Source: Candidatus Aenigmatarchaeota archaeon
GTDB taxonomy: Archaea > Aenigmatarchaeota > Aenigmatarchaeia > PWEA01
Length of the DNA: 64,000 nt
Direction: 5' to 3'
NCBI GenBank assembly: GCA_046539325.1
Contig: JBKHHD010000006.1
Span: forward strand, 3,898-67,897
Notes under the pieces: generated by a model
What the model saw: the letters and a program-made list of their open reading frames with translations, nothing else
Databases searched by the model: none
Told to the model about the DNA's origin: nothing
In this document: positions 594 to 29,380 of the stretch, piece by piece
How the letters are laid out: each line of letters begins with the position of its first letter
Position numbering within the stretch: position 1 is the first letter of the stretch
Program-made: the position numbers and the translations under genes

Positions 594-748
594 TGGGACC
601 GCCGGGATTTGAACCCGAGATCTCCGGCTTTTACGCGTCGCGAAACAAAATTTACCGCGACGGGCCTTATAAGACCGGCGCTTTGGTCAAGTCTTTTGAT
701 GAAACTTTTTCTAAAAGTTTCTTTCTAACCAAGCTAAGCCACGGTCCC
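594..748 (-). tRNA. intron-containing tRNA, probable tRNA-Ile(UAU); ~41-nt insert in D-loop and ~38-nt intron in anticodon loop
   Basis: Minus strand reads GGGACCG-TG-GCTT..[51 nt]..AAGC-G-CCGGT-CTTATAA..[intron]..GCCGG-AGATC-TCGGG-TTCAAAT-CCCGG-CGGTCCC-A. It has a perfect 7-bp acceptor, a canonical T-arm and a 5-bp anticodon stem. Length is 155 nt, so ~80 nt must be spliced out. The anticodon call depends on the exact splice sites. Confidence 0.75.
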
Positions 749-20847: not shown

Positions 20848-21600
20848 CTAAACAACCTTGATCTGACCGGTGTCTCTCAGCTGAATTCTAGGTTGATTTT
20901 TGTAAGTAGTAATCAAGCCTTCGGTTCTTACGGTTTTGTTCTCGTAACTCTCTAACCTTCTTGAAAATCTCCCTTGATAATCATCCCAAATTATAGCTGC
21001 GAAACAATTATCGGGATATTTTCCACCGAAGTTGAGATAGGTTATACCATCTCCTCTGTTTACTTCGCTGACCTCGCCCTGAACAATCTCTACCTCAGAT
21101 ACATATTTTTCGGCCTCGCATGGATGCACAGAGTTTGAAGCAGTCATATTTTTATTCCAAAGACACCCTCTGTTGTTTTCTATTGCTCTCCTTTCTGCCT
21201 CTATCATTTTATCTATGTACTTTTCTCCGGGATCAAAGTAATGGGTATATGCGAGGCCTTCCCGAACCAGTTTCTTGTTTATATTTCGTTCCTCTTTAAA
21301 GATATAGGATAAGTTTCTTCCGTAGGTACCTTCTCCAACGGTTTCGACCTTCACCTCAGTTCCGTTTACCTTTTCCGTCAACCACTCCTTTGCTTCTTCA
21401 TAACATTCATTGCCAACCTCGGTACTGTCCACTCCCATCAACCTAACTTTACCGCTGTCCTCAATAACTACAGTGTCTCCATCAATGACTTCTGTAACAT
21501 TACCTTTCATTGTCTTGGTTTTCTTCACACGAGGTGATGAGAAATATAAAAGCAAAAACCCAAGGAAAAGGACAACAAGAAAAATGTTTCTTGTTTTCAA
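20848..21600 (-). CDS. membrane-anchored/secreted thermonuclease (SNase) fused to a C-terminal OB-fold domain
   Basis: N-terminal TM IFLVVLFLGFLLLYF; DGDTVVIEDSGKVRLMGVDSTEV..GRNLSYIF..LVREGLA SNase motifs; C-terminal VEIVQGEVSEV..FAAIIWDD..VRTEGLITTYKNQPRIQL OB pattern. Confidence 0.8.
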   Translation of the reverse strand: MKTRNIFLVVLFLGFLLLYFSSPRVKKTKTMKGNVTEVIDGDTVVIEDSGKVRLMGVDSTEVGNECYEEAKEWLTEKVNGTEVKVETVGEGTYGRNLSYIFKEERNINKKLVREGLAYTHYFDPGEKYIDKMIEAERRAIENNRGCLWNKNMTASNSVHPCEAEKYVSEVEIVQGEVSEVNRGDGITYLNFGGKYPDNCFAAIIWDDYQGRFSRRLESYENKTVRTEGLITTYKNQPRIQLRDTGQIKVV

Positions 21601-21869: not shown

Positions 21870-22004
21870 GGGAGGGTAGCTCAGCTCGGGAGAATACAAA
21901 AGCAAGGCTTTTGATTTTCGCCCATAGGAAATCCCGAAAGCGCTAGACTGAAGATCTATATGGAAATCTAGTTGTCGGGGGTTCGAATCCCTCCCCTCCC
22001 ACCA
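21870..22004 (+). tRNA. tRNA-Phe(GAA) with two non-canonical introns and encoded CCA
   Basis: GGGAGGG-TA-GCTC-AGCTCGGGA-GA[46 nt, 21894-21939]GC-G-CTAGA-CTGAAGA-TCTA[12 nt, about 21959-21970]G-TTGTC-GGGGG-TTCGAAT-CCCTC-CCCTCCC-A-CCA; TTTTTTATATC box ~30 nt upstream. Confidence 0.85.
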
Positions 22005-22051: not shown

Positions 22052-22576
22052 ATGCAGATTCCTATAGTTGGTCTTGGCGAGATGTCCTCCGAAACTATCA
22101 AAAGAATGAAGAGTATGCTTAACAAGGACTTCAAAAAGCTGAAGTTTTACACTGCCGGAAGGTCCGAATTTCCTGAGAACAGCTTCAATGACTTCAGAGA
22201 CCAGTACATGGCCGAAAGGCTGATGGACGAGTTTCGGGAGGACGGAATACAGGTAATCGTCACTGACGAAGATGTATACAGCAAAAGAAAGAACTACGTG
22301 TTTGGTGAATCTGAGTACAGAGGGCCTGCAGTAGTCAGCACCAAGAGGCTCGACCCTGCCTTCTACGATAGAGAAGGTGACAAAGAGAAAGCATTTCGAA
22401 GAATGGAAAAGGTCGCCGTGCATCAACTAGGCCATTGCTTCGGCATGGACAACTGTGAGAATCCTGGCTGTGTCATGAATTCACCCAGCTCAGTAAAAGA
22501 TCTGGACGATGGAAGCGCCGGCTTCTGTGAGGAATGCCAGGTAGAGATCTCTACGAAGGGCCTTCCGCTCAAATAG
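22052..22576 (+). CDS. amzA: archaemetzincin (peptidase M54) with Gln in place of the catalytic Glu
   Basis: HQLGHCFGMDNCENPGCVM...FCEEC fits H-E-x-x-H-x-x-G-x3-C-x4-C-x-M-x17-C-x-x-C except for E->Q (CAA at 22424-22426). Confidence 0.85.
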   Translation: MQIPIVGLGEMSSETIKRMKSMLNKDFKKLKFYTAGRSEFPENSFNDFRDQYMAERLMDEFREDGIQVIVTDEDVYSKRKNYVFGESEYRGPAVVSTKRLDPAFYDREGDKEKAFRRMEKVAVHQLGHCFGMDNCENPGCVMNSPSSVKDLDDGSAGFCEECQVEISTKGLPLK

Positions 22577-22617
22577 ATTTAAAAGACTCTGCTTCATTAA
22601 AGTTCTGGGGTGTCCTT

Positions 22618-23700
22618 ATGCAGAAAGCAAGGATAGAAGATGGGAAAATAACCGTCGAAGAAGATCCGGAAGAAGTCTTCCAGCTTGGCGGATACGGAAA
22701 GCTTGAGAGTGGAGGACTTATCTTAAAGCCGGTGGAGGCTATGAGCCTTCTACAGAGGGAGAAGATCGAAGTGGTTAAAGACGGAGAGAATCTTACAGAG
22801 GAGGAACTGTACAAAGAAGCCTGTAGTATGACTGAAGGCTTCCATGAAGAGTTGCTTGTATATCAGGATATGAGGAGAAGGGGTTTCGTAGTTAGGCCTG
22901 GTTACTCCTTTCCCTGTGACCTAAGAGTCTACGAAAGAGGCACATCCTTCGACGAGGACGAGAAGAAGTTGAACCACGTCAAGTGGCTCGTCGACGTTGT
23001 AAGGACTGATTCTGACTTCTCTCTTGTGGAGAAGATAAAGAAGGTTGAGAACGCTGACAACATAAGAGCAAAGCTTGCCCTCGGAATCGTAGACGAAGAA
23101 GGCGATGTAACATACTACGAGGTCGATAAAGAGAAGAAGTTGAACAGTAAAACTTCCAAAGATCTGGACGGTACGGAAAGGGCGAAGGGATTTCTGGATG
23201 GAAACACGGTCACGGTCTGGGAAAACCTTGAAGGAATATACGAACCACATTACTTTGGCAAGAAGAGGAAGAGTAGGATAGAGCTTAACCTAATGGAGGC
23301 CGTTTTCCTTGCTGAAAGGGACAAGCTTGAGGTTGCAAGGGGCGAAGAAAAAGTAACTGTAGAAGAGCTTCTCGAGATAGCAAGGGAAAAAGATATAGAG
23401 TTCGAGGACAAATATAAGGTATACGAGGATCTGAGAGAAAAGGGGTTCCTTGTAAAGTGTGGGTTCAAATTTGGGACGCATTTCCGCGTCTACGACCGCG
23501 GCGTTGAACTTAAAAGAGGCCAGAAAAGTCCTGACGAGCATACGAAGTGGGTAGTCCATGCTGTCCCTTCAGATGAAAAGTGGTCGTATCCAGAGCTTTC
23601 GCGCTTCGTCAGACTAGCTTTAAATATTAGGAGCAAACCAACATTAGGCGTCGTGGACAAATCAAAAAAATACTACAGAATAAGGAGGATAAAACCATGA
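22618..23700 (+). CDS. endA: tRNA-splicing endonuclease, two-repeat (alpha2-like) architecture
   Basis: C-terminal repeat GFKFGTHFRVYDRG...HTKWVVHAV...ALNIRSKP; N-terminal repeat GYSFPCDLRVYERG...HVKWLVDVV...ADNIRAKL; start moved from 22534 to ATG 22618. Confidence 0.85.
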   Translation: MQKARIEDGKITVEEDPEEVFQLGGYGKLESGGLILKPVEAMSLLQREKIEVVKDGENLTEEELYKEACSMTEGFHEELLVYQDMRRRGFVVRPGYSFPCDLRVYERGTSFDEDEKKLNHVKWLVDVVRTDSDFSLVEKIKKVENADNIRAKLALGIVDEEGDVTYYEVDKEKKLNSKTSKDLDGTERAKGFLDGNTVTVWENLEGIYEPHYFGKKRKSRIELNLMEAVFLAERDKLEVARGEEKVTVEELLEIAREKDIEFEDKYKVYEDLREKGFLVKCGFKFGTHFRVYDRGVELKRGQKSPDEHTKWVVHAVPSDEKWSYPELSRFVRLALNIRSKPTLGVVDKSKKYYRIRRIKP

Positions 23701-24824
23701 AAATAGACAACTTGAAGGTCAAAGATATAGTTGATGAAGAATTTTTTTCCGTTTCGACGGAAGACAATCTAAAAGAAGTCCTTAACAAAATCAGGGAGAA
23801 AAATGCTTTTGCAGTACCGGTTATGAAGGATGGTGAGCTGGAAGGTATGATAACATGGAGGAAGATAATCCAGAGGTCGGCTCCACCGAAAACAAAGGTC
23901 AAAAAACTTATAAGCCATCCACCTAAGATCGATTCGAATATAACAGTGGTAGAGCTTGCAGAGAAGATGCTTGAAACTGGCTCGAGGGCAGTTCCTGTCT
24001 ACGATAACAATGAGTTTTTAGGGGTTGTCACACAAAGTGAAGTCATAGGAGCCGTGTCAAAGGACAATAGCTTCTCGGGAAAGAAAGCCGGTGCTATTTC
24101 CACAGAACTCAAAACTATAAGAGAAGATGAATCAATAGGAAAGGCAAAGGCAATGATGAGGGAGAACAGGATTGCGAGGCTTCCTGTTGTCGATAAGGAC
24201 GATGACTTGGTTGGTTCCGTAGATCTTTCAGGCATTGTAAAGACTTTCCATCCTGAAAGGGCTATGAAGCTTGGCGAGAAAAAGGGCGACTCTTTGCCGG
24301 AGAGGGATTCCCCTGTGACAAGTATAATGAATAAGTCTCCCGTGACCGTTCCGTACAATTCAAATATACAGGAAGTGGCCAAGGAGATTTCAAGGGGTGA
24401 CGGCCTATACGCAATAACCATGGAGGAAAACAAGCCCCAAGGTATAGTTACTCCTAAGGACATCGTTGAACTGATAGCCTCGCGGAAGAAAAAGGAAGGT
24501 GCCTACATACAGGTTGCCGGAGTCCAGGACGTCGACTCCTTCATGAAGGACAAGATACTTGATTCTGCTGAAAGGAAGGTCCAGAAGGCAGGGAGGATGT
24601 TCAAGGAAGTTCAGAGACTTATTCTACACGTAAAAACTCAGAACGTTGAAGGAAATCAGAGGCAGTATTCTACAAGAGCAAGGTTATACACTTCAAACGG
24701 ACTTTTCACAGCAACCCAGGACTGGGAGTGGGATCTACTTGATTCCGTTCAGGGCTGCTTGGAAAAGATAGACAAACAGATGACAAAGAAGCATGATAAG
24801 CAGATAGACAGAAACAGGGGATAG
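23697..24824 (+). CDS. four-CBS-domain protein fused to an HPF/RaiA (S30AE)-like C-terminal domain
   Basis: Four CBS repeats (aa ~8-262). The C-terminus IQVAGVQ..FMKDKILDSAERKVQKAG..LILHVKTQ..YSTRARLYTSNGLFTATQ..DLLDSVQGCLEKIDKQMTKKHDK is collinear with E. coli YfiA beta-alpha-beta-beta-beta-alpha elements. Confidence 0.65.
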   Translation: MKIDNLKVKDIVDEEFFSVSTEDNLKEVLNKIREKNAFAVPVMKDGELEGMITWRKIIQRSAPPKTKVKKLISHPPKIDSNITVVELAEKMLETGSRAVPVYDNNEFLGVVTQSEVIGAVSKDNSFSGKKAGAISTELKTIREDESIGKAKAMMRENRIARLPVVDKDDDLVGSVDLSGIVKTFHPERAMKLGEKKGDSLPERDSPVTSIMNKSPVTVPYNSNIQEVAKEISRGDGLYAITMEENKPQGIVTPKDIVELIASRKKKEGAYIQVAGVQDVDSFMKDKILDSAERKVQKAGRMFKEVQRLILHVKTQNVEGNQRQYSTRARLYTSNGLFTATQDWEWDLLDSVQGCLEKIDKQMTKKHDKQIDRNRG

Positions 24825-24833
24825 TAAGCTAAT

Positions 24834-26360
24834 TTAGAATTCCTCGCCTGCTTCATCAAAGTTTAAGGTCCCATCCACGAGACTTCGGAGTATTCTTGGT
24901 ATATCATCAATGGAAACTCTTATCTGATCAGTGCTATCCCTGTCTCTTATGGTAACAGTATCGTCCTCCATCGTATCGTAGTCCACCGTTACGCAGTACG
25001 GAACTCCTATTTCATCCGCGCGGGCGTATCTCTTTCCAATGGAGCCACGTTCCTCGTACTCCACGTTCATTCTGTCCTTCAGATCGGCATGAATTTCTTT
25101 GGCCTTCTCGTCAAGACCGTCTTTAGCCATCAAAGGAAATATCCTGCATTTCACTGGAGCTAGTCTTGGATCCAGCTTAAGTAGCTTTCTATCTTCTTCA
25201 ACTGTATAGGCATCCATTATAAAGACCATTAGACTTCTCTCTATCCCCTGTGACGGTTCCGAAGCCACATGTGGAAGAACATGCTCTTCTTTATCCTGAT
25301 CGTAAATACCAAGGTTTTTACCTGAATGTTCTTGGTGGTGACGAAGATCGTAGTCACCACGATCCGCGTTTCCGTAAACTTCATCCCAACCAAATGGAAA
25401 TCTATATTCTATATCGAAGCACGAACTGGCGTAGTGGGCCAGCTCTTCATCTGGATGTTCCCTTAGACGAAGATCCTCTGGATCCACGCCCAACTCAACA
25501 AACCAGTTGAAATGTTGATATAACCAGTATGCAAGCCACTCCGTTTCCATATAATTACCTTGAATTAGCTCTCCTATAGTCATTCTTTCATGTTTTTCAT
25601 CCTCCTCCTGATGCTCGGCCGTCAATACTTGAAGTTCGTAATTCCTTATAGTGTCGTCTAGAAAGGGACAGTTTTCCTTATTATCAGGATGAACAAAATA
25701 TTCTATCTCGAGTTGTTCAAATTCCCTGTTTCTGAATACGAAGTTTCGTGGAGAAATCTCATTCCTAAAGGCTTTGCCAGTTTGTGCTATCCCGAAAGGT
25801 AGTTTTTGCCTTGTACTCTCTCTTACATTTTTGAAGTTGGTAAAAATTAGCTGCGCGGTCTCGGGCCTTAGATAGGCTTTGTTTTCCTCAGATTCCACAG
25901 GACCAAGGTTCGTCTCAAACATCAGGTTAAACTCCTTGACCTCGGCAAGCTCGCCTCCGCACCTAGAACATCTTATATTCTCCTCCTCTATTATTTTATT
26001 CAGTTCTTCAGGTTCCTCACCCTCGACCTTCTTCCCTGTTTCTTCCTCTATGAGCCTGTCCGCCCTGACTCTCCTCTTGCATTTCTTGCAGTCGACAAGA
26101 GGGTCTGAAAAAGAATCAACATGTCCCGAAGCCTTCCAGACCTCGTTGCTTGATATTATGGAGCCGTCTATTCCTACGATGTCGTCTCTTCTCTCCACGA
26201 ACTCCTCCCACCAGAGGTCTGTCATGTTTTTCTTTATCTGCGTCCCCACAGGGCCGTAGTCCCAGAATCCAGAAAGTCCGCCGTATATCTCGGAGTTGGG
26301 GAAGATTATTCCTGTCTTCTTACAAAAGGACTTTATATCATCCAGATCCATCTTTCTCAC
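24834..26360 (-). CDS. glyS: glycyl-tRNA synthetase (archaeal/eukaryal dimeric type)
   Basis: GLSGFWDYGPVG, YLRPETAQ, FRNEISPR class II motifs; C-terminal anticodon-binding domain. Confidence 0.92.
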   Translation of the reverse strand: MRKMDLDDIKSFCKKTGIIFPNSEIYGGLSGFWDYGPVGTQIKKNMTDLWWEEFVERRDDIVGIDGSIISSNEVWKASGHVDSFSDPLVDCKKCKRRVRADRLIEEETGKKVEGEEPEELNKIIEEENIRCSRCGGELAEVKEFNLMFETNLGPVESEENKAYLRPETAQLIFTNFKNVRESTRQKLPFGIAQTGKAFRNEISPRNFVFRNREFEQLEIEYFVHPDNKENCPFLDDTIRNYELQVLTAEHQEEDEKHERMTIGELIQGNYMETEWLAYWLYQHFNWFVELGVDPEDLRLREHPDEELAHYASSCFDIEYRFPFGWDEVYGNADRGDYDLRHHQEHSGKNLGIYDQDKEEHVLPHVASEPSQGIERSLMVFIMDAYTVEEDRKLLKLDPRLAPVKCRIFPLMAKDGLDEKAKEIHADLKDRMNVEYEERGSIGKRYARADEIGVPYCVTVDYDTMEDDTVTIRDRDSTDQIRVSIDDIPRILRSLVDGTLNFDEAGEEF

Positions 26361-28138: not shown

Positions 28139-29380
28139 ATGTACAGGCTGACTGAGGAAGGAGAGAAATACCTCGAAGAAGGGCTTCCTGAAAAGAGGCT
28201 CATGCAGTCTCTGGACGGAACAAAAGAGATAAGCGAAGTGAAGGAAAGGATCGAAGGGTCTTCATTAGCTATAAACTGGGCACTCAAGAACGGTTGGATA
28301 GAGATAAAGGAAGGTACTATCCATGTGAAGAAGAGGCCCAAGGAGATCAGGCTTCAGAAGGCCTTGGAAAAGGTCAAGCAAGGGGAAGGGCTTGACGAAA
28401 ACACAAAGGAGAAGTTAATAGACAGAAGCCTTATAGAAGAAGTCAGGGAAGATATAGTAAAGCAGGCCAAGGAGCAGCTCGAAAAAGGCTCGACATCCAA
28501 TCTCACGCCCGAACTCATAAAAACAGGTCTCTGGAGAGAGGCTGATTTCAAGGAATACGACCCCACGAAAACCGGAAAGAGGAAGTACCCCGGGAGAAAA
28601 CATATTCTCTCCTACTACATACAGGATATAAGGAGGGTTTTCTTTGACATGGGCTTCGAGGAGATGAAAGGACCCTATGTAGAGTCCAGTTTCTGGAACA
28701 TGGACGCACTGTTCATACCGCAGGACCATCCTGCACGGGATATGCAGGACACCTTCTATATGAAGAAACCCGAGGAGACAAAGCTCCCTGATAAAGAGCT
28801 GATTGGATCCGTTAAAAAGATGCATGAACAGGGGAACAGTAGATCGGAAGGCTGGAACTACAGCTGGAAGGAAGAAATGGCTAAAAGACCTGTTCTGAGG
28901 ACACATACAACTGCTGTCAGCGCACGGAAGCTAGCTGAAATAGAGCCACCTGCAAAGCTTTTCTCAGTGGACAAGGTATTTAGAAACGAAACTCTGGACT
29001 ATTCGCATCTTCCTGAGTTCATGCAGGTCGAAGGTATAGTTGCCAGCGGAGAAGTAAACTTCCAGAACCTTCTAGGATACCTTGAGGAGTTCTACAAAAA
29101 GCTTGGTTTCAAAAAGATAAGGTTCAGACCTGGCTACTTCCCCTACACAGAGATGTCCGTGGAGCCGGAGGTGTACTTTGAGGAAAAGGATGAATGGTTA
29201 GAGATGGGCGGCGCGGGAATATTCAGAGAGGAAGTTACTGAACCGTTGGGAATCGAAGTTCCTGTACTCGCCTGGGGCCTCGGGCTCGAAAGGCTTCCAA
29301 TGATAAGGGAAGGTATAGATGATATAAGGAACTTCTACTATGAAAACAACCTTAAGATGTTGAAGGGGGCCAAGATATAA
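28139..29380 (+). CDS. pheS: phenylalanyl-tRNA synthetase alpha subunit
   Basis: FWNMDALFIPQDHPARDMQDTFY, RTHTT, FRPGYFPYTEMS, GAGIFR motifs. Confidence 0.92.
   Translation: MYRLTEEGEKYLEEGLPEKRLMQSLDGTKEISEVKERIEGSSLAINWALKNGWIEIKEGTIHVKKRPKEIRLQKALEKVKQGEGLDENTKEKLIDRSLIEEVREDIVKQAKEQLEKGSTSNLTPELIKTGLWREADFKEYDPTKTGKRKYPGRKHILSYYIQDIRRVFFDMGFEEMKGPYVESSFWNMDALFIPQDHPARDMQDTFYMKKPEETKLPDKELIGSVKKMHEQGNSRSEGWNYSWKEEMAKRPVLRTHTTAVSARKLAEIEPPAKLFSVDKVFRNETLDYSHLPEFMQVEGIVASGEVNFQNLLGYLEEFYKKLGFKKIRFRPGYFPYTEMSVEPEVYFEEKDEWLEMGGAGIFREEVTEPLGIEVPVLAWGLGLERLPMIREGIDDIRNFYYENNLKMLKGAKI

Follow-up and report, generated by a model that had tools for sequence, protein, structure and literature searches.

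The window analysed here is a stretch of 64,000 nucleotides from a Candidatus Aenigmatarchaeota archaeon (GenBank assembly GCA_046539325.1, contig JBKHHD010000006.1, positions 3,898 to 67,897 of the forward strand). At 23697-24824 it carries a gene for a protein of 375 amino acids in which four CBS domains precede a domain resembling the ribosome-binding proteins HPF and RaiA. Judging from its sequence, this gene very probably encodes an orthologue, from the Aenigmatarchaeota (DPANN), of HibA, a ribosome hibernation factor of Archaea that is also called AHA. It is an ordinary new copy of an already published family. The points specific to its lineage are limited to an apparent coupling with the upstream gene endA and a degenerate third CBS site, and both are minor.

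According to the list of open reading frames (ORFs) and the translation, the ORF is intact and runs on the forward strand from the first in-frame ATG to a TAG. Its parts are as follows:

23697-24824, forward strand: HibA/AHA-type gene (hibA), 375 codons plus the TAG stop at 24822-24824
23697-24482, forward strand: CBS module, residues 1-262, with four CBS repeats in tandem that make up two Bateman modules; the repeats lie approximately, by the model, at residues 7-60 (CBS1), 68-121 (CBS2), 133-182 (CBS3) and 207-262 (CBS4)
24243-24317, forward strand: extended loop that connects CBS3 with CBS4, residues 183-207, TFHPERAMKLGEKKGDSLPERDSPV, equivalent of the 'PTC loop' (peptidyl-transferase centre loop) of HibA and of 'loop 3' of AHA
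24441-24461, forward strand: nucleotide-site motif of CBS4, G249-I-V-T252-P-K-D255, the canonical G-h-h-T-x-x-D ribose-binding signature
24483-24821, forward strand: HPF/RaiA-like domain, residues 263-375 (113 amino acids), assigned by Pfam, profile, AlphaFold2 (AF2) model and Foldseek; its elements are beta 270-274, alpha 281-302, beta 305-318, beta 321-332, beta 335-344 and alpha 347-374

Domain architecture and relationship to HibA

The CBS part of the protein is recognized by Pfam (PF00571) in four stretches with an E-value of 4e-43, and the AF2 model of the full-length protein, which has a predicted local distance difference test (pLDDT) score of 81.4, contains four beta-alpha CBS repeats. 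The HPF-like domain is placed C-terminal to this tetrad of 262 residues and is followed by no further domain. Both parts differ in charge, the CBS module being mildly acidic (isoelectric point 5.9) and the HPF-like domain basic (9.6).

The likeness of the C-terminal domain to HPF/RaiA is far above chance. When residues 269-375 are scanned alone, the Pfam profile Ribosomal_S30AE (PF02482) is matched with 24.8 bits (E 3.8e-5), above its gathering cutoff of 23.7. Of 25 collected homologues 23 were aligned (alignment A1), the C-terminal 113 residues were cut out (alignment A2) and a profile was built from 20 homologues. Searched against all PDB chain sequences, this A2 profile has its top match in chain 9SR9_H of Pyrococcus abyssi (E 8.8e-12), and the next matches are bacterial: RaiA of Psychrobacter (8RD8_D, 6e-6), HPF of S. 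aureus (7e-6) and HPF of Listeria, followed by HPF of T. thermophilus and E. coli (1e-3) and RaiA/YfiA of E. coli (6e-3). The same profile finds chain 14 of the entry 9I5V, a weak match (E 0.88) to a bacterial protein of 401 amino acids from Porphyromonas gingivalis named RaiA, whose HPF-like region is likewise C-terminal (298-400) and preceded by an N-terminal extension.

A structure comparison leads to the same assignment. With the full-length model, Foldseek (structure library to 2026-04-08) returned CBS tetrads only and no HibA entry; the matches were the ribosome-bound tetrads of SriA (9znf_4, E 4e-20) and Dri (E about 1e-16 for 9e6q_3 and 9e7f_3), AMPK-gamma and MJ1225, all in the range of 1e-16 to 4e-20. 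As the CBS module dominates the score of the full-length search, the C-terminal domain was modelled and searched separately. This model (pLDDT 89.7) has the HPF topology, and the matches on ranks 1 to 27 in the PDB are all HPF, RaiA or plastid pY proteins. Their template modelling (TM) scores are 0.52-0.75 on the query and up to 0.80 on the target, with root-mean-square deviations of 2.6-4.4 A. Unrelated folds start only at E >0.01 and a TM score of about 0.25. Sigma-54 modulation, after which the Pfam family was formerly named, was rejected as a role, because the role of this family is ribosome binding and because sigma-54 is, to our knowledge, absent from Archaea.

The whole window protein was also compared with the PDB by phmmer. 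The best match is again 9SR9_H (E 1.7e-30), in a single stretch from residue 6 to 369 of the query and 4 to 375 of the target. The chain is labelled 'Dehydrogenase' and present in eight entries (9SR9, 9SRA to 9SRF and 9T7H); the data availability statement of the HibA study identifies 9SR9 and its sister entries as cryo-electron microscopy (cryo-EM) structures of the P. abyssi 70S ribosome with HibA, 9SR9 being the complex with HibA-ATP (PMC13324472). The second match (E 2e-23) is 9L96_a, a 'CBS domain-containing protein' of 406 amino acids which is a chain of ribosome entries and occurs in four of them. It is an unnamed CBS protein of the same architecture; a literature search traced 9I5V to a paper on the Porphyromonas gingivalis ribosome but gave no source for 9L96. 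Matches to the chains of Sri proteins, with E-values from 8e-8 to 2e-5, are far weaker than the match to HibA.

The hallmarks of the family can be followed down to single residues. The PTC loop of the P. abyssi protein (Pa-HibA), residues 190-207 (RFKAQYGELAGEKIPPFS, 18 residues), aligns without gaps with residues 187-204 of the window protein (ERAMKLGEKKGDSLPERD) and is of equal length; the wider loop 183-207 likewise aligns gap-free to Pa-HibA 186-210. In the full-length AF2 model residues 186-200 are the sole segment with a pLDDT below 50 and appear disordered. The loop region 182-207 comprises 26 residues, which is the most common length in the family (40 of the 96 full-length sequences), and G193, G197, D204 and P206 are nearly invariant among the close homologues in A1. 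Two archaeal-specific insertions of the HPF domain, which the authors of the HibA study deleted (283-SAL-285 and 324-KFRGVHL-330; PMC13324472), are both kept as QDV 277-279 and EGNQRQ 318-323, each one residue shorter. The residues T252, D255, Y270, G275, H311, R329 and W345, which are conserved in the family (a tryptophan at position 345 in 91 of 96), are all present.

HibA was described from P. abyssi (PAB0961/Q9UYR4) and Thermococcus barophilus by Madru et al. (Nat Commun 2026, PMC13324472), a later version of a bioRxiv preprint of October 2025 that used the name 'Hib'. It consists of a four-CBS module (1-269) and an HPF/RaiA-like domain (270-392); the latter defines HibA against the stand-alone CM families, and the protein is encoded in about 47% of archaeal genomes from all major lineages (PMC13324472). 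The same family was found independently in Haloferax volcanii and named AHA; its 3,160 homologues are spread over 17 phyla (Souza et al., bioRxiv Feb 2026, PMC12934967). On the ribosome the HPF domain occupies the 30S subunit's mRNA/tRNA channel and contacts h44, h28, h24, h23, uS12, uS9, uS19, uS11 and uS7 (PMC13324472, PMC12934967). The CBS tetrad of both proteins engages the tRNA sites and the PTC of the 50S subunit (PMC13324472, PMC12934967). For HibA three alternative positions of the CBS module on the 50S subunit are known (PTC, uL5 and L1 stalk), and its PTC loop is wrapped around the equivalent of the universally conserved A2602 (PMC13324472). In AHA the HPF domain is located at the A and P sites and the mRNA channel of the 30S subunit, the CBS tetrad on the 50S subunit, and 'loop 3' of CBS3 in the PTC (PMC12934967). 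HibA inhibits translation in vitro (PMC13324472). In strains deleted for hibA or the AHA gene, 70S pools or ribosomal proteins are diminished and cells are late to recover from stationary phase (PMC13324472, PMC12934967). Ribosome binding, inhibition of translation and preservation of 70S have been demonstrated for the P. abyssi, T. barophilus and Haloferax proteins (PMC13324472, PMC12934967).

A sequence-only reading of this gene had proposed four CBS domains fused at about residue 269 to an HPF/RaiA-like domain, in a possible hibernation factor, and had suggested HMMER and fold comparisons. The four repeats are those found by Pfam, the boundary agrees with the first model strand (270-274), and both comparisons turned out positive, HMMER with the CBS profile and, on the isolated domain, with the S30AE profile, Foldseek with its 27 leading matches. 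The bacterial HPF/RaiA matches of the A2 profile point the same way. The published homologues and the full-length alignment to HibA fit a CBS plus HPF/RaiA hibernation factor, so that the functional inference from sequence was right. Its remark that S30AE-type factors do not belong to the standard archaeal repertoire is outdated, because of the presence of HibA in nearly half of the archaeal genomes. Before late 2025, the bacterial HPF fold in Archaea, joined to an adenylate-binding module like AMPK-gamma, would have counted as a discovery; the finding has since been published three times over, as HibA, as AHA and in the related work on Sri/ARC and Dri.

For the distribution of the architecture, 1.84 billion cluster representatives were searched with the C-terminal profile by HMMER, which gave 804 clusters at E <=1e-3 and 150 at E <=1e-10. 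Among these best 150 representatives, 94 have at least 330 amino acids and match the CBS-tetrad profile and therefore show the same architecture. Another 35 are stand-alone proteins of at most 150 amino acids, corresponding to the 'HPF/RaiA-like' class found mainly in DPANN and Nitrososphaerales (PMC13324472), and 17 look like N-terminally truncated fragments. One homologue from JGI (P0013) is annotated as 'CBS domain-containing protein/ribosome-associated translation inhibitor RaiA'. Genome contigs were scanned with a single peptide pattern, [GA][IM][VIL]TPKD[IV]xE, which retrieved loci from Aenigmatarchaeota and Nitrososphaeraceae; with one pattern only, this taxonomic spread is no measure of the family distribution, and therefore the published surveys are used instead. 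The nearest genome loci are metagenome-assembled genomes of Candidatus Aenigmatarchaeota, the protein of one of them (L001) being 87% identical with the gene order kept, and the host is archaeal. The G+C content of the window is 44%. Profile searches against all six-frame ORFs found no second CBS-tetrad gene and no stand-alone HPF gene within the 64 kb.

A HibA with all structural hallmarks in this uncultivated DPANN lineage of hypersaline mats implies that even genome-reduced, host-dependent archaea keep ribosome hibernation.

Probable nucleotide binding, proposed mode of action and alternative explanations

By homology to the proteins of P. abyssi and Haloferax, whose structures were solved by cryo-EM, we infer that the window protein acts like HibA/AHA. 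The tethered acidic CBS tetrad would fill vacant tRNA sites of the large subunit, and the long loop between CBS3 and CBS4 could reach into the peptidyl-transferase centre. Together with the HPF-like domain this would hold the idle 70S ribosome assembled and protected in starvation or stress. Adenylate occupancy might control binding or release.

In the homologues a site for ATP or AMP is located at the interface of CBS3 and CBS4 (PMC13324472, PMC12934967). By isothermal titration calorimetry the CBS module of HibA binds AMP with a Kd of 12 uM, and the affinity decreases from AMP over ADP to ATP (PMC13324472); on the ribosome Haloferax AHA carries two AMP at the CBS3/CBS4 junction (PMC12934967). 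The window protein retains T252 and D255 in CBS4, which are invariant in the 23 homologues of A1 and are found in 81 (T252) and 80 (D255) of the 96 full-length family representatives. At this site its CBS module is likely to bind a single adenine nucleotide, preferably AMP. At the position of the aspartate, CBS1 has a lysine and CBS2 a glutamate, and CBS3 has lost it. The loss in CBS3 (Gly179) means that the stoichiometry may differ from that of AHA, and one canonical adenylate pocket is more likely than the two AMP seen there. With its degenerate CBS3 site the window protein could help to tell apart what each of the two nucleotide pockets does.

Several observations speak against the gene being a HibA orthologue with a nucleotide-binding CBS module. 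Identity to Pa-HibA is low, 25% over 361 aligned columns of the HMMER alignment. On the full protein PF02482 reaches only a borderline 21.5 bits, below the gathering cutoff, and the NCBIfam model yfiA (TIGR00741) scores 27.2 bits with the full protein and 30.7 bits with the domain, below its equivalog cutoff of 40.9. Since TIGR00741 stays below cutoff and PF02482 is reached by the isolated domain only, the C-terminal domain is best described as a homologue of HPF, and the protein is not an equivalog of bacterial-type HPF/YfiA. In CBS3, Gly179 stands where P. abyssi HibA, the 9L96 protein and 63 of the 96 representatives have the canonical ribose-binding aspartate. The sequencing runs that hold the locus are DNA metagenomes of microbial mats and a hypersaline lake, informative on habitat only, and no RNA-seq run was found among them as evidence of transcription. 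Finally, AMP or ATP had no clear effect on the binding of P. abyssi HibA to ribosomes in vitro (PMC13324472). For this last reason the step from nucleotide binding to a 'sensor' is unproven. Of the energy-sensing device proposed in the sequence-only reading, the binding of AMP, ADP and ATP by homologues stands; no clear nucleotide effect on ribosome binding is seen in P. abyssi.

The same result keeps alive the explanation that the gene does encode a HibA orthologue, in which the CBS tetrad is a steric plug of vacant tRNA sites and an inter-subunit tether, nucleotide binding being vestigial or regulating something else, such as sequestration by another partner. We consider this quite possible, short of probable. 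The three ribosome-bound conformations in P. abyssi are essentially the same with AMP or ATP and the native complexes contain no nucleotide, and those residues of the CBS module that are conserved are found in its core and not at the ribosome contacts (PMC13324472). In addition, only one of the four repeats of the window protein has the canonical T-x-x-D. However, T252 and D255, invariant in the close homologues and kept in about 83% of the representatives, argue for selection on the nucleotide site, and AMP occupies the ribosome-bound Haloferax AHA at two positions (PMC12934967). The related ARC factors are reportedly released by ATP.

It is highly improbable that the protein is a CBS-tetrad regulator without any link to the ribosome, either a transcription factor like HhpR or a regulator of an enzyme, and that its HPF likeness is superficial. 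CBS tetrads do have many functions, HhpR of the CM-3 family being a transcription factor (PMC13324472), and the NCBIfam profile HhpR gives a weak match to the window protein (28.8 bits against a cutoff of 520), with yfiA also below threshold. However, the best full-length PDB match is the ribosome-bound HibA and neither HhpR nor a Sri protein, the C-terminal domain is HPF-like by Pfam, profile and fold, and just this domain is the mark of HibA against the stand-alone CM families (PMC13324472). A join of a CBS gene with a stand-alone HPF-like gene by assembly or gene calling would be conceivable in view of the stand-alone proteins, which are mainly known from DPANN and Nitrososphaerales (PMC13324472) and account for the 35 representatives mentioned above. 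This is practically negligible as an explanation: the reading frame is continuous without a stop, the locus is complete in two metagenome runs, and the fusion of 372-382 amino acids is present in 20 homologues of 49-87% identity from independent assemblies and also in 37 genome loci. Because the architecture recurs in this way, an artefact was rejected, and an orthologue of HibA/AHA is the assignment that we retain.

Gene neighbourhood and probable coupling to endA

The sequence-only reading had placed the gene among translation genes (endA, glyS), which is borne out and can be extended by pheS-alpha further downstream:

22534-23700, forward strand: endA, tRNA-splicing endonuclease, 388 amino acids, directly upstream of hibA and probably co-transcribed with it
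23684-23700, forward strand: endA/hibA junction, in which the hibA ATG (23697-23699) overlaps the endA TGA (23698-23700) as ATGA
24834-26360, reverse strand: glycyl-tRNA synthetase (glyS), converging on hibA from downstream
28139-29380, further downstream of hibA: alpha subunit of phenylalanyl-tRNA synthetase (PheRS alpha, pheS-alpha)

The upstream gene encodes an archaeal EndA; the assignment is based on two stretches of tRNA_int_endo (E 2.7e-41) and two stretches of tRNA_int_endo_N in Pfam. At the junction, read directly from the sequence, a GGAGG is located at 23684-23688, 8 nt upstream of the hibA ATG. The ATGA overlap and this motif suggest that hibA probably shares a transcript with endA and is coupled to it in translation.

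The neighbours of hibA in the window were compared by tblastn with the 37 loci. The closer Aenigmatarchaeota loci retain the order amzA-endA-hibA-(glyS, on the reverse strand)-PHP-LPG synthase-pheS alpha, and endA is found directly upstream of hibA even where the HibA identity is only 26-35% (L006, L008-L010, L012, L014, L019, L028). The Nitrososphaeraceae loci lack this arrangement, and so do some loci of Aenigmatarchaeota (L011, L013, L016, L020). The adjacency may simply be phylum-level synteny of housekeeping genes. Because of the ATGA overlap and of an adjacency that persists in the phylum down to about 26% HibA identity, a translationally coupled endA-hibA operon is suggested. Such an operon might link tRNA-intron processing with ribosome silencing in reduced-genome symbionts, together with a HibA that in this clade, having lost the CBS3 aspartate, would be a single-site sensor variant; we regard this combination as unlikely. 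The gene neighbourhood of HibA/AHA is not mentioned in the two publications on the family, and neither the endA coupling nor a single-site sensor variant is discussed in them (PMC13324472, PMC12934967).

EndA itself, with 388 amino acids, has two N-terminal and two catalytic endonuclease domains, which is the duplicated single-chain form. In the distant Aenigmatarchaeota loci (L006-L019) the tblastn match to EndA spans only about 160 amino acids. This suggests differing EndA architectures within the phylum, which may be related to non-canonical tRNA introns. The longest endA ORF is overlapped by 43 nt, in a different frame, by the ORF of an archaemetzincin (Peptidase_M54, amzA; 22052-22576, forward strand), and the actual start of endA may be located further downstream; an internal methionine is present at residue 29 of the translation.

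A tRNA gene at 21870-22004 (forward strand), which precedes amzA by about 50 nt and endA by 530 nt, is missed by default ARAGORN and by the Rfam gathering threshold. Its acceptor stem (GGGAGGG/CCCTCCC) and T-arm are intact and an ACCA end is encoded. The gene can be read as a tRNA-Phe(GAA) that contains two insertions, the first (about 48 nt) between the D-arm and the anticodon stem, which is a non-canonical position, and the second (12 nt) at the canonical position 37/38; this placement was made by eye, whereas ARAGORN -i proposes a single intron of 47 nt. Another tRNA gene at 594-748 (reverse strand, 155 nt, Rfam 44.3 bits) has insertions of 49 nt in the D-loop region and of 39 nt after the anticodon loop (CUUAUA), the anticodon being probably UAU. 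Together both genes point to tRNAs with multiple introns in this genome. The gene at 20848-21600 (reverse strand) encodes a protein of 250 amino acids that begins with a hydrophobic segment and contains a staphylococcal-nuclease (SNase) domain, so that a secreted or membrane-anchored nuclease is probable; nucleotide scavenging by it would be plausible in a DPANN symbiont. The SNase gene adjoins the same genes in L003 and L007.

Comparison with known systems

The closest described relative is HibA of P. abyssi. Both proteins have a CBS tetrad followed by an HPF/RaiA domain and are collinear over their full length, with the same length of the PTC loop, both insertions of the HPF domain and the T-x-x-D of CBS4. 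The window protein is 17 amino acids shorter. The corresponding CBS3 motif is GSVDLSG in the window protein and GLVTLHD in P. abyssi HibA, so that the canonical aspartate is lost in the former. The host also differs, a mesophilic or halophilic DPANN archaeon on the one side and a hyperthermophile on the other, and the sequence suggests a coupling to endA for the window gene. While Haloferax AHA holds two AMP, the window protein has the canonical aspartate in CBS4 only, and a single site is more likely.

With the bacterial and plastid proteins HPF, long HPF, RaiA (YfiA) and pY the window domain shares a homology at the level of profiles and a basic last helix, and the published archaeal structures place the domain at the same 30S site as bacterial HPF/RaiA (PMC13324472, PMC12934967). 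However, the last helix of the window domain is longer, and the domain contains two small insertions. The bacterial HPF/RaiA proteins are either stand-alone (95-115 amino acids) or carry a C-terminal dimerisation domain, and none of them has an N-terminal CBS tetrad.

SriA-D and ARC-A,P from Methanosarcina and Methanolobus as well as Dri from Thermoproteota are also CBS tetrads that act on ribosomes and have a long loop between CBS3 and CBS4. The phyletic distribution of Sri/ARC and Dri is largely exclusive of that of HibA/AHA (PMC13324472, PMC12934967). These factors do not contain an HPF/RaiA domain and are oriented differently on the ribosome; Dri consists of two tetrads, whereas the window protein combines one tetrad with an HPF domain.

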